Shown here: piece by piece, positions 1-40,033 of the stretch
Position numbering within the stretch: position 1 is the stretch's first letter
How the letters are laid out: each line of letters begins with the position of its first letter
Assembly (NCBI GenBank): GCA_026026165.1
Contig: JAPEUD010000045.1
Coordinates: forward strand, 124,001 to 188,000
Direction: 5' to 3'
Source of the DNA: Sarea resinae
Lineage: Eukaryota
Length of the DNA stretch: 64,000 nucleotides
Translations under genes and position numbers: made by a program
Notes under the pieces: generated by a model
Databases searched by the model: none
What the model was told of the DNA's origin: nothing
The model's input: the letters and a program-made list of their open reading frames with translations, nothing else

Positions 1-3000
1 CCGTCTTCTGTCTTCTATTTGCTTTTGTCCTTGCTGCTTTCGCCCGTGGTCACCCTGCCATAGCCGAAGCGGGAGATCCCGACGCACGAGGACGACCAGG
101 ACGAGCATCAAGAGCTCCGGGACAGCACCAGCAGCACCAGCAGCACCAGGAGCACCAGGCTGCAGTGTACGGAGTACTGTACATTCCTCTGTACCCGTCT
201 CAGCTACTCTACTTAGTACTCATCGTAGTACTCGAGGACTCCGTAGTGGCGCTCTCACTCATCTCTCTCGCCGGGATTCAGAGCGAGAATGGGTAAAGCT
301 CCGGGGCCGAATCCCACGACCGTCTGATCGCTGCGGGATCCCTGCTACCATCCGTCCATCCATGGATATTCATCGGCGACCACATCGGGTCCGGATTGGA
401 CAGCACGTCCAAGTTACGTACAGTACGTAGTAGTGACCACCATTGGGCATTCTGGAGTGATGAGCGTTTCGATTGGAAGAGTACCGGAGTATTGGCTCGG
501 CCATCAGAAGCCGAGGACATCATTTCACCATCATCCGTACACGGTAGCAGTCGAACCTTATGTACCCGACTACCTTGCCTGGACCTGCCCGCGCACACAT
601 CGAACCTGACTCGCGCGGAGACAAAACGGCTGCCGCGACCGTTGCTGGTGCCATAGTCATTAGGGCGTTTTGAGTTTGTTCGAGCTGCGGGTGCCACATC
701 CCATCCCATCCCATCCCATCCATCTCGATGGCACGGACGGTGATTAGGTAGGCCTGGCCCTGCTGCAGCGGCGCCAGTGCGGTGCAGCTCAGTGAATCGC
801 CTCAGCACGAATATCAAAAGCAGAAGCTTTTCTCGATGCTCATGGCGATATTGGATATCGAGACTGAACGAGCCGGGCAGCCTTACTATTCCCATGATTT
901 GCACTATGACTAAAGCTCCTCGCCAATGGGATGTCCGTCGTATCTTGACTTCGCCTGCGGTCGCAGATAATGAGATATCTGCCCTTACCCAAATAGTAAA
1001 GTTCGTAGTAAGAATAGCAATAATTATGGGGTCGGCTGCCGGGTAGCATGGCATCAAACAATGGCATCAGTCGATAGGAGGCAGAGCAGAGATGAGATTA
1101 TCGATGAGCGGCGCTGGTTCTCGTCAGGTGCAGGAACGGAAGCCCTCGTCTGCATCTGATCTCGTCTCGACCTGTCTGTTATTCATACTGTTTCCGTTCT
1201 CGTGTCGTCGCAACGAACCTGAACTTTGGTCGAGAAGAAGTCGACCCGGCCGAATTTAGCCTCGACCGATATGCTCTGATCCAACCTAAAGTCTGTTCCT
1301 AGGCAAGCTCAGACCGTAGTCACCTCGTCCCTGCCCTCCCACGGCCATATGCTGCCCATAGGCATCCACATGCTCCCGCGATCCGCCCCAGTGCGATCCA
1401 CTCCGGATGCCATGTCGCATCAGGGCGTGGACTTGGGGCTTGGTGGCTCCTGGTCCTGGAAGGTATAAGGAAGAGCCGGCTCCTGTGGCGGCCGATCCTC
1501 CTGTGCCCAGCACTCGTACCGCTGTCCTTGATCGTCCACCAGCATCTGGCGTCTGCATTACCTTACATTACCTTGCCCGAACACCCCATGAGCTGCGGAG
1601 GAGTACTCTACACCGCGAACCGTTCGGCCTACAGGGAGGGTGCCGTACAGATACTTCGTACCTGCCCATCCCCTCCACTCGAGTCTGGTCTGGTCTGATC
1701 GCTCGCTCGCCATCGCCAGTCACTGATTGACTTGACTACCTGCGAAGACCTGTGGCCGCTGGAGCTCTTTTCCTCCCTCGCCCACGACGACTGCTGCTAT
1801 ACCCGCCACTATTATCACTGCTCCCTCTCTTTTCGCGTTGTCGCGTCTCTCGTTTTCCCTTTCCTTGGGCTTCTCTCCTCTCTCCTCCATCCTCCCACTC
1901 GCTCTCCGTCCTGATCCCGTGCCGGCTCTGCCAACTGCTGCAGTCGACAGCTACCGTATCTGCATGCGCCCCCCCAACGTCCAGGCGTCGTCGTTCTGCC
2001 GGTACCGTCCGCTGTGGTCCTGATCGTGGTCGACGAGAATTGACGCGACTCGGGCATAAACGTGGGCATTAATCATCAGCCAGACAAGGGACCGACTACT
2101 CTCTACCTACCTCTACCCACCTACTGCGCTGCTCACGCTCGACCCAACAGCAGCACCTTACCTGACCTTACCTTACCTTACCTGACCAGACCAGACCATA
2201 CCTGGCCACACCCACCGGCCCATACGGCAGCTTCCACGTCCAACGAATCCCAAGCCAAGCCGAATCCGTTCAATCCAGTCCCAGCCCGTCTGTCCTCCAC
2301 GCGAGCCCTCGCTAGGTACACGCTACATGGTATGGACCCATGATCCTTTCCCTTTTACCCTTTGCCTCTCGTTCTTTTCCTCTCTCGGACAAGTACCGTC
2401 ACCACCTCCTTCGTACCACGTCCTTCCCGGCCTGTCCCTCTGCACCGTCCCTTTACCGACATGTACACACGCACAACACCCTCCATCTCTCTTTGACCCT
2501 TACCCACACCCACGCACACGCTACTCGGAGTACTTTGTACTCGAGCCCGAGTACCTTTTCTGTCCGTTACCCTTCTTCATCTTTCACCTTGCACCTTTCA
2601 CCTTTCACCTTTCACCTTGCACACGCACAACACCCACGCACATATTTACGCGAGACAACCCGTCCCCATGCAAATACTCGCCCCAGCCCGCCCCTCCCAC
2701 ATCCACTTTCTGCCCTCTCCGCTCCACTACCTGACCTACCTGAGCCAACCTGAGCCTACCCGTCTATTCCCCCCCTCCCCGACTATTTCGTGGCACTGTG
2801 CCCTTGTTCGTTCTTCCATACTAAAGGCTTTTTTGACTCGTCTTTGCACTCCTTGCGCATACCCCAAACCATGTCTGGCTCATAACCCCCCCCCCCGCCA
2901 GATCTTCCATCTCGGTCCCCTTCTTCACCTGATCGCGAATCCTTGTCCCCTTCTTCCTGACCCTCGTCGGTCCAGCGTTACCGAGTAGCATCAACATTCA

Positions 3001-3160
3001 TGCTTGTTGTCGCATCTGCTCGCGCTGCTGTCTGTCTCTTCGCATCGCGCGCCGTTGCTTCTTGCTTCAATTGAACACGCCGTCGCCGTTGATTAGACTT
3101 CCTTTCCTGTCTTGACCTTTTTGGCCAGGTACTATCCTGTTTCTATTTGAGCGCTTTCGC

Positions 3161-5866
3161 ATGGTTTGTCCTCGCTCTTGCTCATTTCGCATCATCGTCG
3201 CATATCCCACCGTCGCGTCGTCTGCCGGTCTCTTGCATCATCTGCGCCAAGTTCGTGTGTAACTGACCGTGGCCTTCATTCGTGACAGCATCATCCCCAG
3301 CATCCTCAGCAAGGTCCTCCGCCTCAGGTGCAGAATCCTCGACCGCCGAGCATCGTACATCAACAACAACAACAACAGCATCATCCCAATTCGCCCCATC
3401 CGAGCTCAACCGCGCGTTCTCATCAACAAGGCGCGTTTCCATCGCCTCACGCGTCAGGGCACGGTGTGCCGTCGCAGCAGTCAAATTTTCCCCAGAGCGG
3501 CTCCCAATCCGGTGTTCACCCGCAAGAAATCCCATACTTTGCCGCGCACCAGGGCTCTTATAATACGCCGAGCGCCCCCGCATCCTACTCTTCGTCGGGT
3601 AAGTCTTTTTCCACGTTGAAATCAAGCCAAATATTCCTACCACATCAGTCTTCTCCATCTTACTATGAACATGCAAATGCCTCACCTGACCCTCGAGCAT
3701 CGCTTCTCTTTGAGCTGTAAGCTGACGATTGCTATCAGAAGCACCAGACCTCATGGCCGCCAAGCACATGAACCGGCCGGCTTATCCGCCTATATACCAC
3801 ACTCCTCAGTCTAACTCGCCAGCCTCGGTGGCGTCACCGCAGAGCCACGATCAGCATGGCCGGACAATCTATGCACAACCACCCTCACAACTTCCTCAAA
3901 CAATGTACGGCTACCCTCAATACCCGCCAATGGCACCCGCGAACCCTTCGCCGTACGGGCAACACCCGTCGCAACAACCGCATCCCTCTCTGACCTCGCA
4001 GCCTCTTCTGCTGTCCCATCAGCAGAGTCAACCTCAGCTCCAACATCAGTCCTCGCACAGCCATACTCCAGGAATGAAACAGAGCCCTCGAGCGCAACTT
4101 GCTCAGACGCCGCTTCAACGGCCACCATCAGGTCTGGGGCCGGCATCAAACCCCCCAAGTGGCCCACCTGGAAGCGCGAACAGCATGCATCCGGGACAGC
4201 AGACTGGTACCAATCCGAATGCGGCACCGGGACCGATCCCCGCCACCACCCCGCTCGTCGTTCGGCAGGATAACAATGGCGTTCAATGGATTGCTTTTGA
4301 ATATTCGCGCGACCGGGTCAAGATGGAGTATACCATACGATGCGATGTGGAGTCGGTCAACGTGGATAGCCTGAGTCAGGAATTCAAGACCGAGAACTGT
4401 GTATATCCTCGAGCATGCTGCAGCAAAGACCAATACAGAGGGAATCGACTGGTGTACGAGACGGAGTGTAACACAGTTGGCTGGGCTTTGGCGGAGCTGA
4501 ACCCCTGCCTGAGAGGAAAGCGCGGACTCATCCAGAGAGCTGTCGACAGTTGGAGAAACAGTAACCAGGATCCCCGGCTACGAAGCAGGCGCGTGCGCAG
4601 AATGGCCAAGATCAATCATAGAAAGCAAGTGGCACAGACGCAGAATCACATGGCCGGTCCAAGTGGTCCTAGCCCTGCAGGGGTCCCGACTTCAAGCGGC
4701 CTTCCGGCCGGTCCAGGGGCACGGCAGCCTAGCATGGGTATGGGGAACCCGCAACTACATCACCACCATGCCCATCATCCAGATGGAAGCGCACCAGGTG
4801 GAAGTGACGATGTTAGCGGTATGTTTCACCAGATGTGATGTGTTATTAGCAACCTGGGTTGGACGGAAACGGGAAATATTGTTTCATCTTGTAGCGAGAT
4901 TCCATGTATAATACTTTTTGTGCCCCGTACATGTTTGTAGGCTAATTTCTCTTGTCTCTCTTATAGCTCAAAGTGAGTACAACGGTGCCTCGCATCATCA
5001 TCACCAGACGCCCAGCGGACAGCCCGTTGCCAACCCCGCGGATGTGCGCCAGAGCCAGGTCTTTCATGGCTACCCGAGCTATCCACCCAATCCCAATGTA
5101 GGCGGTCCGGCAATGGCTCCTTCGATGCAATCTGGAATCGATCAGATCGGTGGACATGGACCTTCGACTTCCAATGCGGCCCCGGTTGCCTGCACCAAGG
5201 CTGATGACGATGACAACGTCGCTCTCTTCGGGGATCTTCCAGAGGCCAAGCGCCGGAAGTTTATACTCGTGGATGATCCCCACCGTGGGGCGAGAGTCCG
5301 AGTTAGAGTAACACTGGATCAGGTCGAGATGAACGAAATTCCGGACTCTTACCGCAAGGATCACTCCGTCTATCCTCGATCCTATTTTCCCATGCAGATG
5401 CAGTCGCCTCCTAGTTCTCCCCGAGGTCGCAGATTCTTCGATGATGACGACGACACAACCGGGAGTGATGGACCTACGAAGGGAAGGACACTTGTGCCGG
5501 TGCCTATGGTTGATGGAACAGAGGCAGAGGTGCCTACCCCCCGGCTTGGAAAGGCGAAACGGAGCAAGGAGGTCACTTTGAACGATCTGGGCTATCGCAT
5601 GAGCTGGAGCCAAAGTAGGGTTTTTGCGGGCCGGACGATGTTCTTGCAACGAGCGTGTAAGTCTTAACAGCACCTATCCAACGCCTTGTGATGTGCTGAC
5701 TTTGTCTGCTTCTGTAGTGGACGCATATCGAAACAAGATGAGGAGCACGATGGTGGCGGCGGGCCAGGACGTGTCAGCCGTGGCGCCCCACTTTGAGACC
5801 CGTGTTGGCAAGCGTAAGTGGCTTGAACGCGGTAGCCGAAAGTCGAAGCGTGATTCGACGGACTAA
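3161..5866 (+). CDS. Conserved fungal hypothetical protein with two copies of an uncharacterised domain (recalled as DUF8032-like) and Q/P/H-rich low-complexity regions; possible transcriptional regulator
   Basis: Hand-spliced exons 3161-3163 (ATG only), 3289-3598, 3739-4818, 4967-5656, 5718-5866. All junctions are GT..AG with branch sites and stay in frame, joining ORFs 3328, 3729, 4918 and 5624. Internal duplication: ENCVYPRA..CNTVGWALA..LIQRAVDSWRN versus DHSVYPRS..LNDLGYRMS..FLQRALDAYRN. Confidence 0.8.
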
Positions 5867-7855: not shown

Positions 7856-10800
7856 ATGGATAAGAAAGATCTCCCTAAAGGGTCGAATTCAGACCACGCT
7901 ATCGTCCACCCCTTTTCCCGCTTACAAAGTGACACGAAAAGAGCCGGTGATGGAGAGGCCAACGACTATAGAGGAGAACGTAAGGGAAATGAGCCTTTGA
8001 AACTTCCAGGAGAAATGCGACTGTCCAGCCAGGCTGTCGTGCCTAAGGTTCAGAGATACAACTCCTCAGCTCCGAAAATACATTTCGATACTGATGCACC
8101 ACCCCTCTTAGACGCTGTACGATCGGGAGACTGTCTACTGGTCGATTCCTTAATCCAGTCCGGGGCTTCCGTTGATGAAAGGGATGCGCAGGGGAGAACT
8201 GCTTTAATGCAAGCTGTCAAAGGAGGGCGTAAAGATATATCTGAAATTCTACTCGAGAATGGCGCCGAGGTGAATGCCAAGAGTACATATGGGAGGACCG
8301 TTATGATGGAGGCCGCACAAGCAGGAAGTCTGGACATGGTCATGCTTCTTATTAAGAATGGCGCCGAGGTGAACGCCGAGGGTAGATTTGGGGAGACCCC
8401 CCTAATGGAGGCTGCACGTGCAGGAAGTCCGGACCTGGTTATGCTTCTCCTCGAGAATAGTGCTGAGGTGAACGCTAAGAATGTATATGGGGGGACCGCC
8501 CTGATAGAGGCCGCACGTGCAGGAAGTCCGGACGTGGTCATGCTTCTACTTAAGAATGGCGCCGAGGTGGACGCCAAGAGTGTATATGGGGGGACCGCCC
8601 TGATAGAGGCCGCGCGTGCAGGAAGTCCGGACGTGGTCAAGCTTCTTCTCAAGAATGGTGCTGAGGTGAACGCTGAGAGTAGGATTTGGGGGACCGCCCG
8701 GATAGAGGCCGCACGTGCGGGAAGTCCGGACGTGGTCAAGCTTCTTCTTAAGAATGGTGCTGAGGTGAATGCTCAAAGTGCGGAGGGGGACACTGCTTTG
8801 ATAGAAGCTATAAGAGCGCAAAACCTGGAGATACTAAATATCCTCCTACAGAAAGGTGCTGTTGTGAATACTGTAAGTGAACTTGGGACAAGCGCTCTGA
8901 TAGAAGCTACAAGGACGCAAAACCTGAAAATAGTCAATATCCTCTTAGAGAAAGGCGCTTCTGTGGACACCAAGACTTTTTTGGGGAAAATTGTTCTGAA
9001 GGCAGCTGCTGATACAGGGAGTGAAGAGATACTCCGAGTCCTAATCAAGAATAGCGCCGATGTGAATGCTAGAAGTGCTGTTGGGACGACTGCTTTAATG
9101 GAAGCTTCTCACGTAGGAAGTGATGAGTCGGTCAAGCTTTCAGTCAACGAAGATGCTACACCAGTCCGCGATGATGTCCTGAGAGGGCAGCAAGATTGGA
9201 AGCGCCGACAAGCCGAGGAAGATGCAAGGCCGTTTCGCAGTCCGCGCGAGCGCGAGAGGGAGCAGACCCGAATAACTGGTTTCAGCCCTCCGGCGATAAA
9301 TCGGGACGACCGCCTCATGAACGAGACATATGGTGAAGAAGGTAGATCTGGACGAAACGCTCCAAGAAAGCATCCTGCAAGCAATCCTGAGCAGCCTCTA
9401 GAGACAAACTCAAACCAGCCATCGTTCAATTCGTTTAATACAGCCTCAAGGGCCATACTACTTGCGAGTTATCCATTAGACAGTGCAGCCACTCATGGGT
9501 CGGGTCGACTGGGGATCCCCACTCCACTGGTATATGCTTCAATGCCGCCTGAGGAACATACAGCAGATGAATCTAGAAACGGATCTGGATCTATGCCTCT
9601 TCACCGATCAATATCCGGGTCTGTCTCAATTTTCACATCAGACTCTATCCATTCCGAAGTCTCTGAAGAACCCTCATTGGTAGAGTCCGACGATTCATCT
9701 ACCAGCAACGAAAGCTCTCTAGAGAACACCCCGGATTCCAGCAGAAGCCGTAGGATCAATGTTGATAACTTTGGAACTCCCGAGACAGCTCGTCCACCTA
9801 GGCAACCTCTTCCAGAGGAGTTGGAGCAAGATGAACGGTTAACAAATCCAGCGTCCTATTTTTCGCGTCTTGAACGCCTGGAAGCGTCGGTGTTCAAAAG
9901 CTCTGGGTTATCACATCTTTGGAAATTCCCTACTCGAAAACCAACGAGGCGAGACGCATCTGAGACTCTGTCAAAGATGTGTCCCAAGATCGACCAAGGT
10001 GGATGGGCAAGCTTACCAGGCTCTGTCCGGGGCTGGTTTACTGATTTACTTGAATCGCACAACATTATGTCAAAGTTAATGGCTAACATTGAGCGAATGC
10101 GCGGAGAGAATTTCTGCGTTAACTCAATCAATACGATTGTTGTTGATTCAAGAAGGTCGAACTTGGCTTCACTGTGCCGTATCAGCATCGATCAGATTGC
10201 AAACCTCTGTGCCGAATTCGAAGCGATTCCAGATGAAATCTTTGAACAGGGCGGCTTAGATCCGTTCGTCAGTAATTCGGCGATGACGAGCTTTGATCTG
10301 CGGCTTGGAGGATCTTGCCTGGCTATATGTAAGCCACTTGGATTACCGCTCGGAGAGATCATGAAGGAAACATGGCGACTTACGCCTCTTATACTTGATC
10401 TTGCGATCATTTCTTACTGCGGAGCCCACATAGAGAGGTTCGATGAAGCTTACATCCAGCAGTCTTTGGATTATTTCGATCTTTCGGACATGGTCAATTC
10501 GAGCCCCACGAGTTCCAACAAGCATATAATCTTCCATTGCCGTCGACTGCGTTGCTTGGATGAATTTCTTGGCGGTAGAGCCGTTTGGACATTCGAATCT
10601 ACCGACTCGGATTTGCCTCAAGAAAGCCTTCCAGACCTCTATCTTGGGACAGATATTCAAGAATTTGCGGATGTCTGGGGTCCTGTATGGAGTAACAGAG
10701 GTTTGTTAGGGCGCGATAATCAAATATACAGGACTGGAGGAGGCTATATCCTACCATGGCCTACCGAGCAAGATTCTCCAGGGCTGGAAGAAGAAGAAAT

Positions 10801-12019
10801 ATTCTGCCATTGGATAACCGGGAAGACAGCCATCTGTCAACAGTGGCCTCTAGCCTTTCAAAATTTTGAGCTCCTGAAGCATAGACTCATAATAGGATCG
10901 GGAAGTCACCGGCTCAAAGAAAATCGTGCTTGCAAGCTGCGACCAGAAAATATTCGACAACAGCTAAAGTCAAGAAATTGTCTCTGGAAGGCTGGGACTT
11001 CCAACTCCGTGACCTACAAAGAGAGTCAAGCCGTTCAAGGCCAGATTGGCGGCATGGGTATCAGCACAGGGTTTTCCATGACTTACAAGCGGAGACACGG
11101 AAATTCCTTGAAGCAGGCTTTGGTCGACAAATGGGCTAACAAACCAGGTACTCAGAATCCAAGAGAGCTCGAGAATTGGTATGGGCTCGAAGTGAGTGCC
11201 TGTACTGGTAATGCTCGAAGAAGAAGGCTCGTTGAGATTATAGGCTCAACCATAATGATTCGGAGCCTGCACTTTGCCCTCACTGTCAGCAGGTCTTCTC
11301 CTTGGATGGCGTCTTTTATCGAGGCCACTACCAGCTCTGACTACATGGCGTTCAGTGAGCTCTACGAGGGCCAACCAGAATGGCGCGAGGAACTAGGCAA
11401 GCTCGTTTCTCACTGCTTGGATTTCTTGGCCGACACGGGGACGGATGCTAACCAAAGCCTATCCGCCTTCTGGGTCGACAAAGCATACATTGAATACCTA
11501 GCTGTCTTTTACCGCTCTAGCCATAGCTGGACAGGCATGTTAAACGACACGCGGGAGATATGCACCATGGCCATCCTGACGGAGACCTGTCTCGAGCTTC
11601 CCCACTGCTCTGGCGCTAATGTCTGCGGCGCCCCATTCCCGTTGCATTGTTCTCCTTCCGTGAGGCGCACCCAGGGCAACCCGATCCTGGAAACGTACCT
11701 CGAGATCAACGAACAGGCTCCGATGCCGCCGCGCCTCCGTCGTAGCGCTCGCCGACGAAACCACTGGGACACGAGCGAGCTTTCGTCCGACGCACGCTTT
11801 CCGCTCCGGAACGGCCGGCTCGGCGTGCTACGGCCGCTGCGGCACGGCAAGGTTCTGATGGAGTGGATGGCCACGAACCCCAAGGTCCAAGAGGCCAAGG
11901 AGATGTGGCGGCAAGGTTTCCTCGGACGGCCGTTGGAGCCGTGTCATTGGGAGGGCATGGACGCCGACGACGAGGCTCGCGTCATGAATCGTATCATGGT
12001 TTTTGTCATGGGTCTTTGA
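7856..12019 (+). CDS. Ankyrin-repeat protein (~11 N-terminal ANK repeats) with a low-complexity linker and a large uncharacterised C-terminal domain
   Basis: Uninterrupted 1387-aa ORF with 33-aa repeats of the type GxTALxEAAxAGxxDVVxLLLKNGAEVNA. The C-terminal ~730 aa look globular but match no family I can name. The exact start codon is uncertain. Confidence 0.85.
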   Translation: MDKKDLPKGSNSDHAIVHPFSRLQSDTKRAGDGEANDYRGERKGNEPLKLPGEMRLSSQAVVPKVQRYNSSAPKIHFDTDAPPLLDAVRSGDCLLVDSLIQSGASVDERDAQGRTALMQAVKGGRKDISEILLENGAEVNAKSTYGRTVMMEAAQAGSLDMVMLLIKNGAEVNAEGRFGETPLMEAARAGSPDLVMLLLENSAEVNAKNVYGGTALIEAARAGSPDVVMLLLKNGAEVDAKSVYGGTALIEAARAGSPDVVKLLLKNGAEVNAESRIWGTARIEAARAGSPDVVKLLLKNGAEVNAQSAEGDTALIEAIRAQNLEILNILLQKGAVVNTVSELGTSALIEATRTQNLKIVNILLEKGASVDTKTFLGKIVLKAAADTGSEEILRVLIKNSADVNARSAVGTTALMEASHVGSDESVKLSVNEDATPVRDDVLRGQQDWKRRQAEEDARPFRSPREREREQTRITGFSPPAINRDDRLMNETYGEEGRSGRNAPRKHPASNPEQPLETNSNQPSFNSFNTASRAILLASYPLDSAATHGSGRLGIPTPLVYASMPPEEHTADESRNGSGSMPLHRSISGSVSIFTSDSIHSEVSEEPSLVESDDSSTSNESSLENTPDSSRSRRINVDNFGTPETARPPRQPLPEELEQDERLTNPASYFSRLERLEASVFKSSGLSHLWKFPTRKPTRRDASETLSKMCPKIDQGGWASLPGSVRGWFTDLLESHNIMSKLMANIERMRGENFCVNSINTIVVDSRRSNLASLCRISIDQIANLCAEFEAIPDEIFEQGGLDPFVSNSAMTSFDLRLGGSCLAICKPLGLPLGEIMKETWRLTPLILDLAIISYCGAHIERFDEAYIQQSLDYFDLSDMVNSSPTSSNKHIIFHCRRLRCLDEFLGGRAVWTFESTDSDLPQESLPDLYLGTDIQEFADVWGPVWSNRGLLGRDNQIYRTGGGYILPWPTEQDSPGLEEEEIFCHWITGKTAICQQWPLAFQNFELLKHRLIIGSGSHRLKENRACKLRPENIRQQLKSRNCLWKAGTSNSVTYKESQAVQGQIGGMGISTGFSMTYKRRHGNSLKQALVDKWANKPGTQNPRELENWYGLEVSACTGNARRRRLVEIIGSTIMIRSLHFALTVSRSSPWMASFIEATTSSDYMAFSELYEGQPEWREELGKLVSHCLDFLADTGTDANQSLSAFWVDKAYIEYLAVFYRSSHSWTGMLNDTREICTMAILTETCLELPHCSGANVCGAPFPLHCSPSVRRTQGNPILETYLEINEQAPMPPRLRRSARRRNHWDTSELSSDARFPLRNGRLGVLRPLRHGKVLMEWMATNPKVQEAKEMWRQGFLGRPLEPCHWEGMDADDEARVMNRIMVFVMGL
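8255..8790 (+). repeat. Tandem 99-bp near-identical ankyrin-coding repeat units (about 5)
   Basis: Recurrent blocks such as gcaggaagtccggacgtggtc and aagaatggcgccgaggtg / aagaatggtgctgaggtgaac at 99-bp spacing. Confidence 0.9.
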
Positions 12020-13447: not shown

Positions 13448-16039
13448 TCATCCTGCAGATTAGCACCCACACTCCTGTCGTGTCGTATCCATCAAGTAGT
13501 TTCGTTTACCCATGCCTATTCCATACCACTCCCATCGTACACAGCAGGCTCCTTTGTACCTGTACTAGGCTCAGTATCCTCTGGTAGAAGTGGCTGACGA
13601 AGAGACCTACCACTCTTGTGGCGCTTGTTCTTTCCGTTACGTCGGCGGGGAGCGGACTGCGGCACATTAAACACCCCGGGGACTGCGACCATGCTTGAAT
13701 CGGTGCCCGAAACAGCGGAAGCTGCGCCCTCGGGCACAGGCGTCCAATCCAAGGACAGAGGCGGTGGTGAAGCCGAAGCTGAGCGTGGTGTTGTGCGCGG
13801 TGCTGGAGGAAGAAGAGGTGGGGCATTTTCCTTGTCGAAACTTCCTTCGGAGCGTTGCTGGAGAGTATCCGACGCGGACTCAGGTTTGGCTCCTTGGCTG
13901 TTTGACAACGACAGAATGCCAGTGGTGGCCTTCTGAAACGAGTTGACTTGCGGGGTCAGAGGCGGGGACTGGTCCAACAACAAGTCTGTGCCGGGATCCG
14001 TATCAGGCGAGTTGCTCGTGTGTGCCGGAGCCTGATGCGCAGGTATGATGGCGGGGAGACCAGAGTAAACTTCGACGTTATCCCCATCGTCCTCAGAAGA
14101 CCATGAGTGATGTCTAGTGCGTTTTCCCAGCATGACCTTGGTGAGCTGGCCAGGCAAGCCGTGGTCATCCTCATCTGCATCTTTGTCCCAAATGTTACCA
14201 CCTTGCTCATTGTCAGAGAGATCCAAGATCTCATCGAGATCACTGTCGCCATTCCCTTCGTCGGATTCAGCTTCATCGTCGGCATCACTTTCACCAATGG
14301 CGAGACGATAGTCTGATCCTTCCAAACCTTTTTTGAGGAAATTGGCCATAGGACCCTTGGACTTGATAAAAGGCATCACTAAGTTTGATTTCGCCTTGTC
14401 TTTTGTATCGGGCCCGTTGCTATTGTAAGCCGAGGAAGGATCCTGGCGAGAAGCTGAACCTTTCATCCTACGTTGGCCGATTGATACAAGTTCCTTGTGG
14501 CTGATAGATGGAGTGAATGGATCTCCCTCGTTATCAGCGAGATCTTCACGGGTAGATTCACGATACTCGGAGCCAAAGTCAATCTCAGGGTCTTTTCCCT
14601 TGGGGCGGATTCCCTTTCGAACCTTCTCGTCGAAGGTCTTATCGGGATCAACCTTCTTCGCTGAGGTTTGAGGATGGGCAATATTGAGAGGTGTGTACTT
14701 TGATAACATAACATTCATCTCCCGTGCATTACCCGCAGCCCGGTGCGCTTTTTCAGCCTTTTCCCTGGGAAAGCCTTCAAAGTTGAACGTCCGAAGCTTT
14801 TCTGTCATGATGATGGGGTCAGTGTTGCTGGATTCGCTTTTGAAAAGGCCTCTCACCTTCACTCCGGTAGAAAAATTGGAAGGTAGCAAAAGGCCCCTCG
14901 CCCTTCTTGAATGGCGAATATGTGACAATGCGAACATTCTTGGAGCCTTTGACCAGGGATGTTTGTCCGAACCTGGGCTAAAGTTAGACAGTTTCGGAGA
15001 GCTTTGACATGAACAAACCCAGTAGTATGTGTAATGTCCTTTTCGGCACCAGCCATATCAACATCGTCCAGCTCACCTTCTTTGTGCTTGGCGCGGAAGT
15101 TGTGGTCCGTGGACTTTGTTCCAAGTTGAATCCGCTCCAGCTTGACCACGATCTGGCCAGCTTTCGACGTCTCGACGTTTGTCTTTTCTCCCTCTTTCAA
15201 GGATGCCGAAAAATTCATAGCTTCAATTAATTCATCCTCATCCTGGGCTAACATATCTCCAGCAGAGCTATGGGCCGCTGAGATCAGCATCTTGTCGAAT
15301 GAAGCTTCAATGCCAACATCTTGAAAAAGCCAGACATGCTCTCGAAGCTTGCCATCCTTGCCTTCGACCCATCGGGTTTTGAATACTACCATTCCATCTG
15401 GCTCGTTAAATTCCTCATCTTCTGGGTCAAGATATATGATCAATTTGCGCTCGGGCTTCTCGCGGCCATCGAGGTAAAGAGACGCCAAGAGATGAAAAGG
15501 AGGGTGCAGACTCTCAGTGGGGTTCCGGCCTCGTTGTCCCGGAATAGGGATGCGGACGGGGGATAAAGTCTTTGATCGTTTTCCACCTTGAAGCTTGAGG
15601 CCTACTTGAAGGTTGTACTTCGGGGGGTCGCAACTGGAACTGTTGTTAGCTTTCTCTTACTGTCTCATGATCGTAATCAGGAAAGGGGTACCGGTTGCCT
15701 AAACACCCAAGCGATGTTATTAACGGTTCACTTGTTTAATGAAGAAGGCCACTTGCATTGATCCTCGTCCTTGCCTTCGTCCATGTCCTCCAAATTTGCA
15801 TCAAGAAACCCTAGCTTATCTGGACCGTGATTCAGTGTTTCAAAGGCATGGGCAGCGGGCGTATCATCTGCGATGAGAGGAAGCTTTGGTTGGATAGACA
15901 CTCGAAACGACACATTGGTTTCAGACTGAATATAGCATGAGACCTTGTTGTGACGGCGGAAGTGCTGCGGACTCCATTCCTGCAATGCCTTCCCATCGCT
16001 GGTGGTGACATGCACCGTAACACCACGTAATTCGGGCAT
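13448..16039 (-). CDS. Hypothetical protein with N-terminal DUF7918-like domain and acidic/disordered C-terminus
   Basis: MPELRGVTVHVTTSDGKALQEW..VSCYIQSETNVSFRVSIQP; LLASLYLDGR; spliced exon FGQTSLVKG..GPFATFQFFYRSE. Joins ORFs 15728-16039, 14859-15488 and 13516-14937. The 3' end is 13448 if a last intron is spliced, otherwise 13516. Confidence 0.7.
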
Positions 16040-17154: not shown

Positions 17155-19361
17155 CTAGCTCGAAACATTGATCTCATATCCAAGTAAGACCTCCGTGGAG
17201 TTGCCCTCCCACCCTCTATTTCCACCAGTCGATATCATATACCTACAAGCCGGATCGATAAATAGCTGCGACACAACGCCGGTTCGATGTCCGGGGACGA
17301 TCAAGAACGGTACCGTAGCATGCTTGAAAGACTGCTGCTCTCTCAAGTCATAGAGACGTAGGATATCGTACGAGGCACTTCAAACGTTGAATTAGGTCGG
17401 CTCCAGATTCAAGTCAGGATGCAAAACTCACCAGATCATATGCCTTCCATTTGGCATGGCCCTCACCGCGCTTACCGGCCCACTTCCCTGCGGGAATTTG
17501 AAAGTTCTCTCGGAGTCACGGAGGCCCTTATGTAGACTATACTCCTCCACCGTGCCATTCCGACGACCAGCGTAGATGAAGTTGCCATCCGGTGACCAGC
17601 AAGCATTCATGCACCAAGGAGGAGTATTTCGTGGAAGGATTACGGAAACGGGGTTTGGCTGCCGCCGATCCCAGATACGTATTGTGCCATCGATTGAAGC
17701 AGCAAGGAATGTGCTATCGGGGGACTGAGCAGGCTCGTGTGAGGGAGGACCCTGCACGGTGGAGCGCGTATCGTCGTTTGAATGAGGTAGGCCGTTGACC
17801 TGAGGTGGCATTCCGTTGGGCAGCTTGGTTCCATCCGCCTCGTGCTCGGGACGATCGGCCTGACTTGGGACAATGTTCTCGCTGGGTGGTTGTACAGGGC
17901 CACCAGCTTCAACCATACTGACATCGCCCTGCGCATCTTCCTGCTCCTGCTGCTGAATACCATTCGCGATAGCACGAGAGAATTCATCGTCATCGTCGTC
18001 TCCAAAGTTTCCTCCTGAAGGCGCACCAGCTCCTGCGTCGTTGTCGTCACCAAAGAGCGAATCCGCTTCGTTGCCGCCGAAGAGCGAGTCGGTAGGGGAT
18101 CCATGCGCGTCCTCGATATTGCCGTCGCCAGATCTCGAACCCTCTTTTCCCGGGCTCTTGGTTGTATTAGACGAGAGACCGTTTGTGAGAGGTTTCGAAT
18201 CGTTATTTGTTGAGAATGTGCCGTTTGAGAGGGAGAGCTCTCCGAGATCCTCGGGAACTGGTAAGCTTGACATCGGTCGAGTCTCAATGGCTGAGATCTG
18301 ACCACCGCTGCCCTCGAAATTTCGCTTAACCTGGCCAGTATTCAAGTCCCAGTCATATACATTCTTGTCCCAGCTACCAGACAGAACAGCTTTTTCATCC
18401 TGTGCGAGAGTGAGGACCGAAATTGCGGATGTGTGCTTCCGAAGGCTCGTAATGAGCTTTCCCTCGTCGTGTCGGACCGACTGCAGGTTGATACAACCGG
18501 ATTCCAGGCCAGAGAGTAGCCAGAGCCCCTGGTGATGAGTGGCAAGGGAATATACCGGCGAAAGCGGGAGATTGTCGTCTGCTACCTGCATCCTTGAAGT
18601 AGAGACTAGAAGATGCGATTTGTGTTAGCGGAAACCCGAGCACGTCAATATGCGAATCAAGTACCTTGAGGCTCTTCGTTCTCCCAATAACTGACGAGGA
18701 CGCCGGCTTTCGTGACGCTGTCCACAAAAGGATGCCTTTGAGCGACCGTCAACATCGCCTTCCCATTGGCGGTGTCCACCCAGTTGAATTTCCGAATATA
18801 GCCGTCCGCTCCTCCACTAAAAACCCAACGAAGATCTGGTGTAGCCGTGACCGCATTGATGGATGTGCTGTGAGGTGCCGCTATCGTAGGCACAATGTCG
18901 TAGAGACGGGCACTTATCGCTTCTGGACGAACCGCGGGACGAAATGGCAAGGAAGAAGCTGGCCGCGGGGATGGGGTAGCATTTGTGACGGGGGGATGCG
19001 AGGTTGGACCAGGTTGCCTTACACCATTTGCACTCGAGGACCCTTGACTGGGAAAAGGAGCACTGTGAGGTAAAGGCGATTGCGCGGATGTGACCACTCT
19101 ACTCTGAGATTGAGACTGCGGTTGCGACTGGGAGGGGGAATCGGTATAAGGGTCCTGTTGTTCGTCTTGGTCATCGTCGTCGTCGTCGTTATCGTCATTG
19201 TCGTCATCATTGTCTCCTTCCGCATCGCCGTCCGCATCGGCCTCTCCATCCCCATCTATCTCGTCGGCATCCTCCATGGTTTCGTCATTGTCATTATCCG
19301 AACTACCATTGGGAGACGCTGGGCCATCTCGGTCATCGTCTTCGGCGCCGAATGCTTGCAT
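17155..19361 (-). CDS. SPT8: SAGA complex WD40 subunit Spt8
   Basis: Acidic N-terminus (MQAFGAEDDDRD), then YDIVPTIAAPHSTSINA, FSGGADGYIRK, LSPVYSLA, WLLSGLESG, PPWCMNACWS, IYAGRRNGTVEEY, HATVPFLIVPGHRTG, MISTGGNRGWEG; multi-exon. Confidence 0.93.
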
Positions 19362-21424
19362 TCTGAACGTGACGTGGGGCACGAGGGCCCATACGAATGG
19401 CCCCACCCGAAAAAGGTCTAGAACTGGGTGTGCTGTGAATTGAATGAGAAGATTGATCAGATAGTGGTTTGGGCGGGTGGCAGAGAGACAAGAAAGTGGA
19501 TCGTCCGCACGAAAGGTTGGTGGGCGAGTCGTACACGAGTCGTACACCGACTAGAGGCTCAACGGTCGAGATGGAAGGACGGAAATCATCACGATGAGAT
19601 ACGAGTCGAGATGTGCCCCTAAGATTCTGCGATCAGAGAACATCGGCCATCATGGCAATGCTTCTAAGATGCCTCCACGGCTGGTCGAGAGTGGTAGCGA
19701 ATGAATATCTCTTGAAGAAGCGCAAGTCGATGGCTGCGATGGCACTTTGACGTTGCGCGCCGTGCAATAATTATCAGGCCGCATGGGGCCTAGTTCGGAT
19801 TTGATATGCTGTGCATTGATCGGTGCATGCTGTGCACCGCCAGTTGCAGCGGAAAGAGCCGAAAGATCAACAAGCGGCACGCACAGGGATGAGATGGGCG
19901 TCCTCTCCGCAACATTTCATGTTCCATAGTCATTATATATCGACTTGTATCTATCTACCTACCTCCTCCCTATAAGAATTTCGATGTATGCCCCACCCGC
20001 ACATCTACATACTTCTCGGGGCCATCTTTGCCCTTCCATTCGAGTCTGTGCATTGCTTTGCGGTGGTGTCGAACGATTGGGCGCTGAGTGAGGCCGCTGC
20101 CATGGGGGTCGGACACGAATGTGTTTGCTGGGTGGAGAAGATGGCGGTCGGAGGGATGCAGCTGCAGCAGCAACAGCAAACGGGCAGGAGCACCGTGGGC
20201 CAGCACCGTGGGCCAACCTGCGAAGAGAGGGTGGAGGCAGGTCTCAGGCTTTCTACAGACCGAGATCTCTCAAAGTTATCTAGGTAGGTACAGTATGTCA
20301 GAAGGAAGTGGAGGACGTTCAATGATGACGTGGAAACGGGTCTGAAGAACCCCCTTGCCCTCGTGAACTGCTTCTCAGTTGGCATGAACGAAGGGAAACC
20401 CTCACTTGATCAATGACTGATCGATACGTCTACCACTGAAAGCCGTCCACTCATTCATTCATTTACCTCGCTTGGCACGTCCATCGATGTTTTCCATCCT
20501 CGTTTCGTTCCTTCGTCTCCTGGTAAACACAAACATCAACGTTGTGGACTTCGTCTTGAACTCTTTGAGCATTGAATGTCAAACATACAATATCGAATAT
20601 CGAACTTGTCATTTGGAACTTCGAACTCTTCGAGCCTTGATGAAACTCTTCCATTCTCTCCGCTGTCAGCACCCGCCATCTTGTTCGGGGTGTTTACGGT
20701 CGTTCTTGACAAGTCCAGACCTCACTGTGGAAGGAAGCCCTACTCTCATGAGTAGGCATCTTACTCTCAGTTTGGTTGCTTCGGGCTGCGGGTACGTAGG
20801 TATCACCTTCCTTACCTATCTTAGGAGTGGGTGTTTACCACCCACTAGTCCCCGTTGCCAGACGGAATTGGTCAGACAACTCTGACCGACCCCTTCGATT
20901 TCCAACCGGTATGTGAAGTTCCTCGTCTTCTCCTACATCATCTTCGCATCTCAATCACCTCTGACCATCCCCATCGATTCATCACCACTGATTGCATACT
21001 CGCGTTCTCTATCAATCAGGGAATCGCGAATCGCTCATCTTCGTTCGCGTGAAGACCCTCATCTGAAGTTCTCTTCATCTGAAGGTGGATGACCTGAAAG
21101 TCAATGACAGTGCATCTGGTCAGCGAGATCGTTGCTGTTCTGTTTACATCACTCAGGCTAACCAATACACTCGTTGTCGCGTTAGGAGATTGCTGTATCC
21201 CCTCCAACGTAAACTTCTCGGGTACTGTTGTCGACGGGGCCGCTGTTGATAGTGTGGGGCAGGAAGGTAGCCAATCCATCGTACGCGTTTCCTCTATATG
21301 CCTTGGTCCTACACTGGATTCCGTCGTTCCTCACCCGAACCTTGCTGACCTTCTATCGATAAGCACGGCCTCCAAGTAGCTTCATCCAATCCATTCTCGA
21401 GATTGTCTTTGAAGACTCGATATA

Positions 21425-24400
21425 ATGGAGAAGACATCCTATGGTCGCTTTGGGGGGCTGATGGATCTTCAGGAAACAGGTGAGTAAACATCGTCGAGCT
21501 TTCTCGAATGTCCTTCGAAGTGGTGAAACACCAAGAAAGACTGTCGCTTTTTTTTGGCTCTGCATCTGGCTAGATTCTTCGGATATTTGTTGCTTCAATG
21601 TCCCACTTTCATACATTCCTTCTGCATTCACTCTCGAACCACCCAAATTGTTGATCGAAACGAAGGCTCTGATGGGGATCGATGCAATCGGGCCGAGCAT
21701 TCACCTTTGAGTCTGTGTACCCATTCTATATAACTCCACAAATGCTCCTCTTCCGTCCTTCTTACCACCTCTTTGCCACATCTTTCCCAATTCTTCTTGC
21801 CATCAGCATCTTTTTCCTTCTTCTCGTTCTTCTACTCTCTACTAGTGCTTTCTACCCTTATCTCCACCCTTGGGCTTCAGGATGGTGTCGATTACTTTCA
21901 CTGACCAGTCTCTACGCCTTGTAGAGATGAACGCGGATTTAGTCGAAAAGTTCGGCAAGATGGGCGTGCGTCCAGTTCAGCAAATACGGGCCAAGCAGCC
22001 ATCCGTTCCTGCGAATCAGAGCATTCGGGAGTATGAATGGTCGAGCAACGACGCGGGAAATGCGACAACCTGGCTTTCGCAACGAGAAATACCAAGCTCG
22101 GCGGAAATCATGGACCGGAAAGACTTCACTGATCCTGACGAAGAGAATGAGGAGGAGGATGGTGAAGTAGAGCTGTCTGGCAATATTGTTGATGCGCCCT
22201 GGGACTCCAAAGAGCAATATCTCAACAGCCATTATGAGCTTCTAAGGGAAGATGCAGTTGCCCCATTGAGAGAAGCCGTCGCAGAATTCCGTAAAAACCC
22301 CTCTATGAGTGAATCGAAGGACCTCTGCATATATGACAATGTATTTGACTATCCTCGTCTCGATTTTGTTTCTTGCTGATATGCTCAGGTTCATATTGTT
22401 GGAGTAACATTTGCCAACCAAGGCCCTGCCGTACGAATCGCCTTCTCACTGGCAAGAGCCGGAAAGAGAATAATGTGGCAGCACTCAAAGCGACTGATGA
22501 GCGGATCTTTGGTTGCTCTATCGAAAGCTAGTGACATGTTCCGAAAAGACTGCAAGGTGGCGATAGTTGCGGCCAGGCCTTTGGCCGGTGTGGAGCAGAA
22601 CCCGCCCGAGATCGACATTTTTCACGGAGCACCTGAAGAACTCGAAATTGATCCCCAGGAAGAATGGATCATGATCGAGTCGAGAGCAGGATACTTTGAA
22701 GCTTATAGACATACACTGGTAGCCTTGCAAAAGATGTCTACACGACTGTAAGTTATGGATGCCATCAGAGAATATTAATTTGTTGACCACTATAGCTTCC
22801 CTCTATCCGAACATCTCGTTCATCTACAGAAGGACGTTCATGCACCAAGTTACGTCGAATCAAATCCGTTCACCGATCTGAGTACTGCATTCAACACTAC
22901 CGGAAATTGTACTGCATCCTTTGAGAATGTGAATATTCTTAGTGAATGGCCGACTTCCCCACCACCTGAATTGCGACTTGATGACTCCCAGCAAGCTGCT
23001 ATGAGGCGTATTCTCACGAAAAAACTGGCGATCGTCCAGGGCCCTCCCGGTACCGGTAAGACTCATGTATCAGTCATTGCCTTGAAGGCCATCCTTCGAA
23101 ATGTACAGTCAGATGATCCTCCTGTCATAATCACAGCACAAACAAATCATGCTTTGGACCAACTTCTTCGTCACGTGGCGGAGTTTGAGCCAGCTTTCAT
23201 TCGTCTAGGTGGTCAATCCTTGGATCAAGAGGTCATAAAGCCAAAGACGCTCTTCGAAATAAGAAAGTCCACAAACTTGCCACCTCTTTCTGGTAGTCTC
23301 AAAGCTCCGTCAATGAGAAAGCTGAAGGCTCTGGCGCAGACCATGGCAATTTTGCTAAACCCACTTCAGGCCTCAAGTGAGCCACTCGATGCTGCGCTAT
23401 TACGGAAATTGGGGATTCTTTCTCAAGACCAGGTCGATTCACTCGAGCGTGGGGCTTCAGAATGGGTACATCCAACAACGGAGGGGCAGCCGTCTAGTCC
23501 GATGGCCGTTTGGCTGGGGGATGAGCTGGCTCGGTTCAACCTCCAGTATCATGAGCACTACCTCGGCTTCGAGTATGAAGAAATCGATCTTGAGTTTGAA
23601 CAATTAAGAGAGCTGGAGGCTGAGAAAGGAACCGCGAAGGATGATGAGGACATTGAGTCATTGAGAGGCACCTATGTACCCCTACAAGAGCAATTCTCCG
23701 GCAGAAAGCATCCTGGAATTCCAGAGGCATCTGTCCGCAAAGCTCTCAAATTTTCCGACATGTGGAAGATTCCTGAGATACTCAGAGGTCCAGTCTACTC
23801 TCATTTCCAGCGGGAAGCCAAAAAGGCGCTTCTTTCGGTCTTTCGTCAAGAAGCCAAAGCGTACATGAAGACGGTCACAGATTTCAAGATTGGCAAATGG
23901 GAATTTGATAGCCAGCTTCTGAGCAGAGCAAAGGTCGTCGGAGTGACGACGACAGGTTTTAGCAAGTATCGCGCCTTACTCTCGAGTCTGAAGCCACGTG
24001 TGGTGCTCATTGAAGAGGCGGCTGAGACGCTGGAGGCGCCGGTCATTGCTACCTGTGTGGAGTCCTTAGAGCACTTGATTCTGGTGGGCGATCATAAGCA
24101 GCTTCGAGGCAGTTGCGCTGTGCAAGAGCTTGAAGGCCCTCCATTCAATCTCGGTGTTTCCTTGTTCGAACGCCTTGTGACCAATGGGGTCGAGTTCTCT
24201 ACACTCAGCATGCAACGGAGAATGAAGCCGGAGATCCGCAAATCTCTCAATCCGATCTATGAAGAGCTACAAGATCATCCAGACGTGCTGAATCGACCTA
24301 ATGTCGCCGGAATGGGAGAAGTGAGCTCGTATTTCTTCTCACACAAATGGCCAGAAACCAAAGATGCCCAGATGTCCGCCTGCAATCAAAGCGAAGCTGC

Positions 24401-25681
24401 TATGGTCGTGGGACTCTACAATCATCTTTTCCTGAACGGCACAAAGCCAGTTGAGATCACTGTACTCACTTTCTACAATGGCCAGCGGAAGCTCATATTA
24501 AGGCGTCTCCGAGAACATCCAAATCTCAAAGGCTTCTACTTCAAGGTTGTGACGGTCGACTCCTACCAAGGAGAAGAGAATGAGATTGTCATTCTGTCAC
24601 TAGTCCGGAGTAACAGCGGAGGCAACATCGGATTTCTTGACAATGACAATCGTGTATGCGTGGCACTTTCACGAGCTCGATTAGGATTTTATGTCTTTGG
24701 TAATGCTGACCTCCTATGTCAAAAGAGCATGCTTTGGTGGAAGGTAGTCAATGTCATGAGTAAGGAGACAAATCGTATAGGTTTCCACCTTCCAATTGAG
24801 TGTCTCGAGCATAAGAAGAAAATGCAGATTAAAGGTAGGCATTTTCGTCACTTGTCATCCCCATTGAAGACTCCCTGACTTCTCATAGATCCGCAAGAAT
24901 GGGACTTCCTCTCTGGTGGGTGCGATCGCAAATGCAGAGGTACATTGCCTTGCGGCGACGCTTGCACTCTGAAGTGTCACTCGTAAGTTGCCTTATGCTT
25001 TGACGAAATTACTTCCTGCTCACCTTCGCCAGTTTTCCCCATGAGCTTGTAAACTGCACTGCACAACCCTGTCTCCTCGAAGCCAGCAAGAATGCGTGGG
25101 CGCCGCAAGTACAGCAAGTGAGGAGGAGCTCTCCATCACAAATCAAGCAGAGTCCCCCACGGCAACTTAGACCAAGCCCTACTTTGGATGAGAAGTCGCA
25201 TCAGTCACCACGAAAGAAACTCACACCTCCATGTTCAAGACGCCCTTCGAGGTCCTGCTCATCGCCGTCTCCGCCTAAACAACCACAACGGATTCCGCTA
25301 GCCACCACACATGCGAGAAATGTGACACCATCGCCGACGCTGAAGCAACCAACTCCCATGTTCCCCTCTCCTTCCGAGTCCGACGTATCCGATGCATGGA
25401 ATCATTTCGCCAAGGGTGGAGTCGTTGCGTCAGACGCTTATCACCAAACCCGTCTCGGCGAAGACTACGCAAAGGGTTTGCAGGACAAGCTTGACAAGGA
25501 AGCCATGATTAGTCTGTTTGGCGGCGATGGCGCATCTTCTCCTGTTGAGGGACAAGTTAATCAGCAGCTGACTCCTGTTCGCACATTCTCAGACGCTCAA
25601 GGTGGCATGAGGGGCATCTGGAAGGAAGTCTATCATCCTGAGCTTCTGACCCATATGCCTGAACCGAGTCTACTTGATTAG
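21425..25681 (+). CDS. hrr1: ZNFX1/Hrr1/SAD-3-like SF1 (Upf1-like) RNA helicase implicated in RNAi-related silencing
   Basis: YLNSHYELLREDAVAPLREAV, WQHSKRLMSGSLVALS, GPPGTGKT, AQTNHALDQL, IEEAAE, LVGDHKQL, TVDSYQGEE, VALSRAR and one NF-X1-like Cys motif. Exons (21425-21479), 21925-22340, 22389-22747, 22796-24834, 24889-24982, 25033-25681. The first exon is tentative; alternative ATG at 21927. Confidence 0.85.
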
Positions 25682-38959: not shown

Positions 38960-40033
38960 ATGAAGCAGGGCTGGGACACGCAGCTGATAGCATCGCTCTC
39001 AAGGTCGACTACACGTGCGATACTCTAGAGACTTGCAAGTGCTGATCGCGCTCAACAGAGCCAAGGATACAGCCGAGTATTCTGATCTGACCATCAAATG
39101 CCGTGACCAGAGCTTCAAAGTCCACCGTATCATTGTCTGCGCTCAGTCCGAGTTCTTCCGAAAGGCGATTGGCGGCTTCTTTAAGGAAGCGGCTTCGGGC
39201 GAAATCTCCCTACCTGATGACGATCCATATATGATCCAAAGACTGATCACTTTCTTCTACGCTGGAGATTACGCGGACGAAGGCGGGCCGGATGATTGGA
39301 GGATGCTGAAATCGAAAATAAACCAAGAGATACCAAACGTCTTTGGTTCCTCTTCAGGCAGCCAATTTGGGTAACCCAGGAGCAATGCGGTGCCTCAATC
39401 TCCCAAGCCAACCTTTGGCTTTGGTAACGCCCCAAACACAGGAGCTAGCAATGCATTTGGCCAACCAGCTACTTTTAATGTCAGTCCAGGCACTGATACC
39501 AGCAGCATGTTTGCGGCGCAATCATCACCACCGTTCCTTAGTACACCCACATTATCTTCGCCTCCCAACCCCAAAAAGTCCGCAGCGCCAGCAGGGAAAA
39601 ATTTAGAGCCTGCTGAGCTCGCAAGTTGTAAGTCAGTTCATGAAGGTTGTTATGATCGCGACTCATATCAATGCCAGACTTGCGATATACGCCTTTCGTG
39701 GTCCACGTTCAAATGTACGCCCTCGCCGATAAATATGGCGTGCCACTTTTGGCGAAACTCGCCGACGAAAAGTTCAAAAATCGGCTCAACGGCAGCAAAT
39801 GGAATGTCCCTAGCCTCTGCATGGCCACCGAACAATTGTACCAGTTGCCGCCATTCATTAGTCAGAATCTGCGAAAGCTCATCGTCGCCTAGGTGTTTGA
39901 GAATCGCACAATGCTGAATTCGGTACAGGCGTTTAGGGATTTACTGTTGAACGTGCCACAGTTCATGCACGATGTCCTTCTTGCAACCTGGGCCGAAAAT
40001 GACAAGGCGACCAAGGACAGGCTGTGGTATTGA
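38960..40033 (+). pseudogene. BTB/POZ paralog, array copy F, with two in-frame premature stops
   Basis: [48 protein letters not shown]..; TAA at 39372-39374 and TAG at 39890-39892. The frame continues through both, and after the TAG it keeps paralog similarity (VFENRTMLNSVQAFRDLLLNVPQFMHDVLLATW) to TGA 40031-40033. Confidence 0.8.

Follow-up and report, generated by a model that had tools for sequence, protein, structure and literature searches.

The question raised by this locus is what kind of module forms the C-terminal part of an ankyrin-repeat (ANK) protein of Sarea resinae, whose gene lies in a 64,000-nucleotide stretch of genomic DNA (hereafter the window) and which had been proposed, in the original prediction, to be a single-chain sensor-effector cell-death protein. 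The gene consists of one uninterrupted open reading frame (ORF) of 1387 amino acids (aa) in which no intron is needed (7856..12019, + strand), and a database gene model of identical sequence begins at Met54 (nucleotide (nt) 8015) and comprises 1334 aa. Three parts can be distinguished along the protein: (i) an array of about ten ANK repeats of 33 aa (residues ~82-428; 8099..9139, + strand; Pfam Ank_2 E=3.9e-71, Ank E=3.4e-63); (ii) a low-complexity linker rich in S, R, P and E, which is probably disordered and has no Pfam match (residues 431-654; 9146..9817, + strand); (iii) a 733-aa domain, here termed X, which reaches the C terminus (residues 655-1387; 9818..12016, + strand) and has no sequence match in Pfam or PDB.

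The earlier observation of one self-contained, unassigned globular domain at the C terminus was confirmed. A hidden Markov model (HMM) of the X family spans residues 655-1385 without a break (HMM positions 1-731 of 733). All Pfam assignments in the 1387-aa protein are to ankyrin families and fall within approximately residues 80-430, with nothing credible beyond residue 430 even at E≤1. The start first given for the domain, 9820, is off: residue 655 begins at nt 9818, and translation from 9820, two bases out of frame, gives stops only. The N-terminal part of X (residues 655-868; 9818..10459, + strand) is predicted to be mostly helical and opens with a conserved motif (ERLTNPASYFSRLERLEA in the window protein), and the remainder (residues 869-1387; 10460..12016, + strand), in which most of the invariant residues lie, is predicted as a beta-rich core with a helical insert. 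No transmembrane helix was found in the protein (highest Kyte-Doolittle mean over 19 residues, 1.36) and its N terminus is polar; the ANK-X protein is probably cytosolic.

Run exhaustively against 1.84 billion cluster representatives (clusters at 50% identity), phmmer returned 928 relatives of X at E≤1e-3, 612 at E≤1e-10 and 247 at E≤1e-30, the best non-self match being only 38% identical. The source names seen for them are 'hypothetical', 'uncharacterized' or taken from the N-terminal partner. All named organisms carrying X are Pezizomycotina (filamentous ascomycetes), namely Coniosporium, Pseudovirgaria, Bathelium, Chrysothrix, Acarospora, Pleopsidium, Villophora, Circinaria, Trichoglossum, Glutinoglossum, Mollisia, Rutstroemia, Botryotinia, Sclerotinia and Penicillium. 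Of the two members harboured by Trichoglossum hirsutum, P0017 falls in one clade and P0168, part of the P0014 cluster, in another, so paralogy exists. Single-copy, conserved homologs would have spoken against the sensor-effector proposal; the family was found instead to be large and diverged, with at least two paralogues in one genome.

Relatives outside the family were sought with sequences and profiles. No Pfam family was found over X in 35 long members at E≤1e-5 or in 40 further members at E≤1e-6, and a scan of 60 mostly stand-alone members at E≤10 gave 14 families, each in a single member (best E, 0.039). A single X sequence had no match in PDB at E≤10, and a profile of 65 members matched two designed helical proteins only (E from 0.56 to 0.67). 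A pattern-based scan of prokaryotic genomes gave 20 matches and no relative, which is weak evidence for absence from bacteria and archaea; longer fused forms (2166-5000 aa) were not found either, again weak evidence. In a limited literature search on four family accessions, no paper describing X was found.

Despite this divergence, a set of residues is nearly invariant among 144 aligned X relatives: H858 (140 of 144), C900 (142 of 143), W941, G942 and P943 (141-143 of 144), H985 (143 of 144) and W1225 (140 of 140), followed by K1078 (129 of 144), with E981, C1026, D1231, C1245, C1257 and E1366 as further conserved polar residues. Five Cys and two His are thereby kept. The most conserved loop of the family, E1112-x-S1114-x-C1116-x-x-N1119-A-x-R1122 (11189..11221, + strand), is a candidate active or ligand-binding site, in which E1112 is retained in 123, S1114 in 143, C1116 in 138, N1119 in 130 and R1122 in 137 of the 144 sequences. 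The family signature can be summarized as H858, C900, WGP941-943, H985, C1026, K1078, E-x-S-x-C-x-x-N-A-x-R (1112-1122), W1225, C1245 and C1257, and the window protein belongs to the family by retaining every one of these positions as well as every conserved polar residue of X. All six motif blocks that had been picked out from the single sequence (EFADVWGPVW, EIFCHW and SWTGMLND among them) are present in the translation; they fall on the columns that the family conserves best and are therefore far beyond chance. The conserved C1116-x5-R1122 spacing resembles the CX5R signature of phosphatases; neither a phosphatase Pfam family nor a phosphatase or rhodanese-type fold occurs among the matches.

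Structure prediction, which had been suggested as a check, gave a confident model and no known relative. With AlphaFold2, the 733-aa domain (alignment of 65 sequences) reached a mean predicted local distance difference test (pLDDT) of 85.7 and a predicted template modelling score (pTM) of 0.72, and the 519-aa core (residues 869-1387; 70 sequences) reached 85.5 and 0.76. X is thus confidently predicted as an alpha/beta fold, whose model begins with a helical part, continues as a beta-rich core interrupted by a helical insert and ends in a C-terminal beta region. Foldseek searches of PDB returned no match at E≤1e-3 for the 733-aa model and none for the 519-aa core, and neither Foldseek nor VIA-align gave a solved relative (best Z for the 519-aa core, 4.8). 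The top Foldseek match to the core, a type III polyketide synthase (E=0.17, probability 0.10, TM-score ~0.1), was discarded as noise. Because X can be placed in no known family or fold, it is new as a domain; this newness, judged from sequence and models, refers to domain placement only and not to function.

What precedes X differs widely among members. The X HMM was run over 167 proteins (including the two forms of the window protein), and in 132 of them fewer than 50 aa follow X, which is therefore almost always C-terminal; fewer than 150 aa precede it in 93 and at least 300 aa in 44. Among the 35 long members, the partners are ANK (six), protein kinase (four), DUF6590 (two), Zn_clus (one) and CRC_subunit (one), with none in 22; of the six with ANK, P0127 also carries NPHP3_N/NACHT, P0066 a GPIID-type winged helix and P0023 DUF6590. 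The 40 further members comprise four with DUF6590, one each with TPR, WD40, ULD_2, ubiquitin, AMPK1_CBM, Fungal_trans_2 and PSP1, and 29 with none. In addition, 49 loci were obtained by a scan of metagenome contigs, and from the 19 with the most flanking DNA, 80 of 111 ORFs of at least 170 aa were scanned with Pfam, after exclusion of antisense overlaps, near-duplicate loci and split X fragments. The 15 X-bearing ORFs among them carry ubiquitin (eight), a GRF zinc ribbon (one), CRC_subunit (one), an NLR (NOD-like receptor, NOD standing for nucleotide-binding oligomerization domain; one) or no partner (four). The apparent lack of an N-terminal partner is in part truncation, because many family sequences come from fragmentary contigs. 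The anticipated exchange of N-terminal modules among homologs is thereby borne out, with ANK, WD40, TPR, kinase, DUF6590, ubiquitin-like (UBL) and zinc modules all found ahead of X.

DUF6590 precedes X in six of the 75 members scanned (P0023, P0059, P0085, P0100, P0106 and P0134); this domain is itself uncharacterised, and a literature search on it found no paper.

Two kinds of partner can be described more closely. The first is the NLR. A single ORF of 2427 aa in one metagenome locus (L048:2745-10025, + strand) encodes a complete NLR with X after its repeats, in the order PGAP1-like alpha/beta hydrolase (E=6.2e-6; 26.6 bits against a cut-off of 24.3), NPHP3_N/NACHT, GPIID-type winged helix, WD40 and X. 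A second fusion, P0127, has the order NACHT (148-371)-ANK-X (1879-2705), and a third, P0066, is a partial model of winged-helix domain-ANK-X. In L048, the only one of the three with a readable N terminus, the PGAP1-like hydrolase occupies the usual effector position, which argues against X as the killing module there. The window protein itself is no fungal NLR of the STAND (signal-transducing ATPases with numerous domains) class, which is defined by a NACHT or NB-ARC domain in the same protein: no NOD family was found in it by Pfam at E≤1 or in the upstream ORFs, and tblastn of the NOD-bearing parts of P0127, L048 and P0066 against the window matched the ANK region only, or nothing.

The second is the ubiquitin-like domain, which lies about 50-60 aa before X in ORFs of eight loci (L012, L017, L020, L026, L029, L033, L036 and L039). 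These domains mostly lack a terminal Gly-Gly and, by comparison with the C terminus of ubiquitin, resemble stable UBL domains rather than ubiquitin that can be cleaved off. The UBL-X proteins hint at a link to the ubiquitin-proteasome system. At least some of the fusions are real, as CRC_subunit-X (L002) occupies an uninterrupted ORF of 1333 aa and the NLR of L048 an ORF of 2427 aa.

The distribution of partners was traced on two trees. In a FastTree phylogeny of 144 X domains (omitting P0002, a duplicate of the window protein, and 22 rows with an HMM span <520), the seven ANK rows need five changes, at least two of them forced by starred branches, against a mean of 6.1 after shuffling; the ANK label is therefore not clustered and its rows are scattered. 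The four kinase rows need three changes. In a second tree to which 16 locus ORFs were added (160 rows), the ten UBL rows need only two changes, a value matched by 0 of 500 shuffles, and thus form a single UBL-X clade, with ULD_2 as a case apart. The three NLR rows need three changes, all forced by starred branches, and X thus occurs in three separate NLR-bearing clades. Both trees carry FastTree support only and contain some long branches, and many of their rows with no partner probably come from gene models cut short at contig ends. A long branch (1.2) leads to the window protein, which is nearest to P0157, P0009, P0010, P0012, P0158 and a Coniosporium pair.

The reading that we prefer, and that we put forward tentatively, at slightly less than even odds, is of a cytosolic protein in three parts, in which an ANK recognition adaptor is joined by a disordered linker to X as a catalytic or ligand- or metal-binding output module. 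The ANK array would act as a variable protein-recognition adaptor, and more generally the N-terminal module of each family member (ANK in this one) would deliver a partner or substrate to X or act as its gate. X would be the working end, by catalysis or by binding of a ligand or metal, because its conserved polar residues are retained (the five Cys, the two His, the E-x-S-x-C-x-x-N-A-x-R loop and the basic stretch at the base of a hairpin described below), its position at the C terminus is fixed and its N-terminal partners are of recruiting or regulatory types. A recognition module ahead of a C-terminal catalytic domain is familiar from ANK-PARP (tankyrase), ANK-HECT (HACE1) and UBL-RBR (parkin) proteins. 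The likeness is an analogy of layout only, a fixed C-terminal domain behind interchangeable ANK, WD40, TPR or UBL modules, whereas no sequence or fold relation of X to PARP, HECT, RBR or other enzyme families was found.

Several points weigh against an output role. X could be assigned no enzyme family, cofactor site or ligand, Pfam leaves it without a match even at the loosest threshold (E≤10) in the 60 members, and the PDB profile search gave nothing below E=0.56. The CX5R-like spacing comes without a phosphatase family or fold. With many sequences on fragmentary contigs, part of the partnerless class reflects truncation. Finally, X in the NLR fusions stands after the repeats, a position that a published Sordariales survey assigns to sensors or baits (PMC12258605), and X could therefore be what is recognised rather than what acts.

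This last point leads to a different view, in which X is chiefly a recognised or sensing module: a cellular hub whose core form is UBL-X and which has been integrated after NLR repeats as a bait or extra sensor, the ANK-X protein of the window being either related to such receptors but devoid of a NOD, or itself a target under guard. We regard X as a guarded hub rather than an executioner as a serious rival, even if an unlikely one. It draws on the three NLR-X fusions in three separate clades, always with X after the repeats, and on the coexistence of a coherent UBL-X clade (with L029 and L033 sharing a rhomboid neighbour) with scattered, diversified members. According to the same survey, the non-canonical domains of Sordariales NLRs are mostly C-terminal, with SPRY always beside ANK, and domains after the repeats are proposed as sensors, integrated decoys or baits (PMC12258605). 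X resembles these in following the ANK or WD40 repeats of a complete NLR, but it is a different, unannotated domain, and most X members, the window protein included, are not NLRs. Moreover, NLR fusions are only three among approximately 180 family proteins examined, no NOD domain is present in the window, no antagonist or ligand is known, and the strongly conserved polar residues of the loops suggest an activity of X itself.

Since X is joined to NACHT-type NLRs in three separate clades, the family does touch fungal NLR immunity. A broader and speculative proposition, to which we attach a low probability, is that X is an unrecognised, Pezizomycotina-wide module of fungal innate immunity with a new fold, either a guarded hub repeatedly integrated into NLRs as bait or a new cell-death or signalling effector, and that the window gene is its NOD-less version, with a fast-evolving ANK array wired directly to X. 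Most components and targets of NLR-type immunity in fungi are still unassigned, and the lineages with X include lichen-forming and plant-pathogenic ascomycetes; X is a specific candidate, open to test, for a novel activity of filamentous ascomycetes that is tied to immunity or to ubiquitin. The sensor-effector idea of the original prediction is thus partly supported, in its swappable recognition module, its C-terminal module and its links to NLRs, and not in its pore former.

The pore-forming proposal concerned a hairpin said to lie at about 10990-11100, in agreement with which the peptide in question was located at residues 1051-1080 (nt 11006-11095). Its description as S/T/G-rich with alternating hydrophobic residues is accurate and holds family-wide, as the profile of 65 members reads T-V-Q-V-Q-V-G-x-x-G-V-S-V-G-Y-Q-R-Q-Y-K, with positions 1060, 1062, 1064, 1069 and 1071 strongly hydrophobic, 1073 being Y, G or A, the other face consisting of Q, S, T and G, and a conserved basic stretch (Y-K1078-x-R-x-G-x-T-x-K) following. 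Both models predict a beta-hairpin here (conserved amphipathic hairpin at residues 1057-1076; 11024..11083, + strand): strands at residues 1059-1064 and 1071-1076 in the 733-aa model, where the pLDDT of 46-64 is its lowest, and at residues 1057-1065 and 1068-1076 in the 519-aa model (pLDDT 67-77).

A role of X as a beta-pore former or other lytic effector of cell death, with its hairpin 1051-1080 refolding into a membrane stem once the ANK sensor is triggered, is nevertheless very improbable. In its favour are the conservation of the hairpin with a Q/S/T/G face opposite a V/I/L face and aromatic and basic flanks, the fact that confidence is lowest here in a model that is confident elsewhere, as would fit a mobile element, and the occurrence of X in NLR proteins. 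In a language-model atlas, the nearest Pfam-named clusters are also gasdermin-type (scores 0.77-0.78 for residues 725-1387 and 0.82-0.83 for residues 869-1130), and one cluster with no Pfam name is automatically labelled MACPF (0.81); by calibration, however, scores <0.9 are leads only, shuffled proteins reaching 0.8 a third of the time. Known beta-pore-former stems alternate over clearly longer strands. The hairpin lacks the long two-strand amphipathic alternation that spans a membrane: its hydrophobic register covers three residues per strand (1060/1062/1064 and 1069/1071/1073) and is bracketed by conserved D1056, E/Q1058, R/E1075, K1078 and R1080. Nor is this alternation exceptional, with scores of 1.21 and 0.96 within the range of the other 23 of 25 predicted strands (up to 2.7), and at an entropy of 2.4-2.5 against a domain mean of 2.66 the hairpin is slightly better conserved than the average of X.

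Family and fold comparisons point the same way. The window protein, scanned at E≤1, and 60 relatives, scanned at E≤10, gave no Pfam match to gasdermin (with the bacterial model PF26164 outside the scan), aerolysin, ETX/MTX2 or MACPF, and chains of gasdermin, aerolysin or MACPF were absent from all structure-search lists. The short amphipathic hairpin and the weak atlas scores are what X has in common with gasdermin, RCD-1, HET-Q1 and aerolysin-type proteins, from which it differs in its lack of a Pfam match, its three-residue register and its richness in conserved Cys and His. The gasdermin pore-forming domain is about one-third the size of X, and a 733-aa domain with conserved Cys and His is unlike the known small pore-forming modules. 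The NLR effector position in L048 is already taken by a PGAP1-like hydrolase. Apart from the look of the hairpin and atlas scores below threshold, nothing speaks positively for the pore reading, and the claim of a membrane-inserting hairpin is unsupported. In the preferred reading of X as an output module, the hairpin would be a conserved, somewhat mobile beta-arm of the fold rather than a membrane-spanning stem.

At the other end of the protein, the array is of genuine ankyrin type, with nine Pfam-matched stretches in a 33-aa register. Its most similar repeats form a tandem array of a 99-bp unit (8256..8769, + strand; 5.2 copies, 84% matches; Tandem Repeats Finder), and repeats 4-6 share 79-85% of their residues and 84-87% of their nucleotides, with differences mostly at repeat positions 1-6 and 30-33, which are loop positions. 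Fungal NLRs are described as enriched for high internal repeat conservation, and repeat identity >85% over at least 100 aa as rare in dikarya (1.2%) and found chiefly in NLR-like proteins (Dyrka et al., PMC4986451). The window protein recalls fungal NLRs in that its repeats are unusually alike and differ at loop positions, and its family in that X is attached to three NACHT-type NLRs and accompanied by ANK, WD40 and TPR. It departs from them in having no nucleotide-binding domain and in the placement of X after the repeats rather than at the N-terminal effector position; in addition, its best 100-aa ANK window shifted by one repeat reaches 82% identity, close to but under the 85% cut-off given in the analysis of Dyrka et al. 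(PMC4986451). An antisense ORF inside the ANK repeat DNA (8050-8739, - strand; 229 aa, repetitive) is most likely a by-product of the tandem repeat and not a gene.

The linker was correctly described earlier as rich in S, E and R, since residues 431-654 contain 14.7% S, 10.7% R, 10.3% P and 9.8% E, with a hydrophobic fraction of 0.18. The closest relatives of the window protein have no ANK and carry S/R/P-rich N-terminal tails that resemble this linker. The ANK array thus looks like an addition in the window lineage.

The genes around ANK-X encode SPT8 (17428-19550, - strand), an SF1/Upf1-like helicase (22779-24878, + strand), Doa1/PLAA (27525-29693, - strand), a zf-C3H1 protein (42526-45984, - strand), a myosin heavy chain (48774-54854, + strand) and a BEACH-domain protein (62194-63999, - strand), and the immediate downstream neighbour is an S/E/D/P-rich ORF of 473-513 aa with no Pfam match (13516-15057, - strand). 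Given these housekeeping flanks, the gene lies in an ordinary chromosomal region with no obvious accessory island. No second copy of X was found within the 64-kb window, and no neighbour, immune-type or other, is common to the 19 homologous X loci.

Such surroundings accord with a third alternative, under which X has no catalytic role and serves as a structural or scaffold domain in a housekeeping protein specific to this lineage, its partners being in part gene-model fusions with neighbouring genes and ANK an ordinary interaction domain. The SPT8, SF1 helicase, Doa1/PLAA, myosin and BEACH-protein genes, the absence of an X paralogue in the window and the lack of a conserved immune-type neighbour (a HET gene and a subtilase occur once each among the 19 loci) all agree with it, and CRC_subunit, PSP1, Fungal_trans_2 and AMPK1_CBM, each seen once or twice, may be annotation artefacts. 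We nevertheless consider it rather improbable, more so than the guarded hub: CRC_subunit-X and NLR-X each lie in a single ORF, a family of 928 clusters at 50% identity with a best non-self identity of 38% goes beyond one housekeeping orthologue, and conserved Cys, His, Ser, Glu, Asn and Arg in loops would be unusual for a plain scaffold.

Among the homologous loci, the HET-domain gene (L020:3670-4977, - strand) lies 2.6 kb upstream of a UBL-X gene and the subtilase gene (Peptidase_S8; L002:3-956, + strand) 5.5 kb upstream of the CRC_subunit-X gene, each a single case in 19 loci and possibly due to chance. A rhomboid gene is common to L029 and L033, and redoxin and lyase genes are common to L040 and L028; both pairs of loci look orthologous. 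In the window itself, GC content falls to 0.415 at 40001-42000, against ~0.50 elsewhere, and a strong GC skew (-0.37) is present at 2001-4000.

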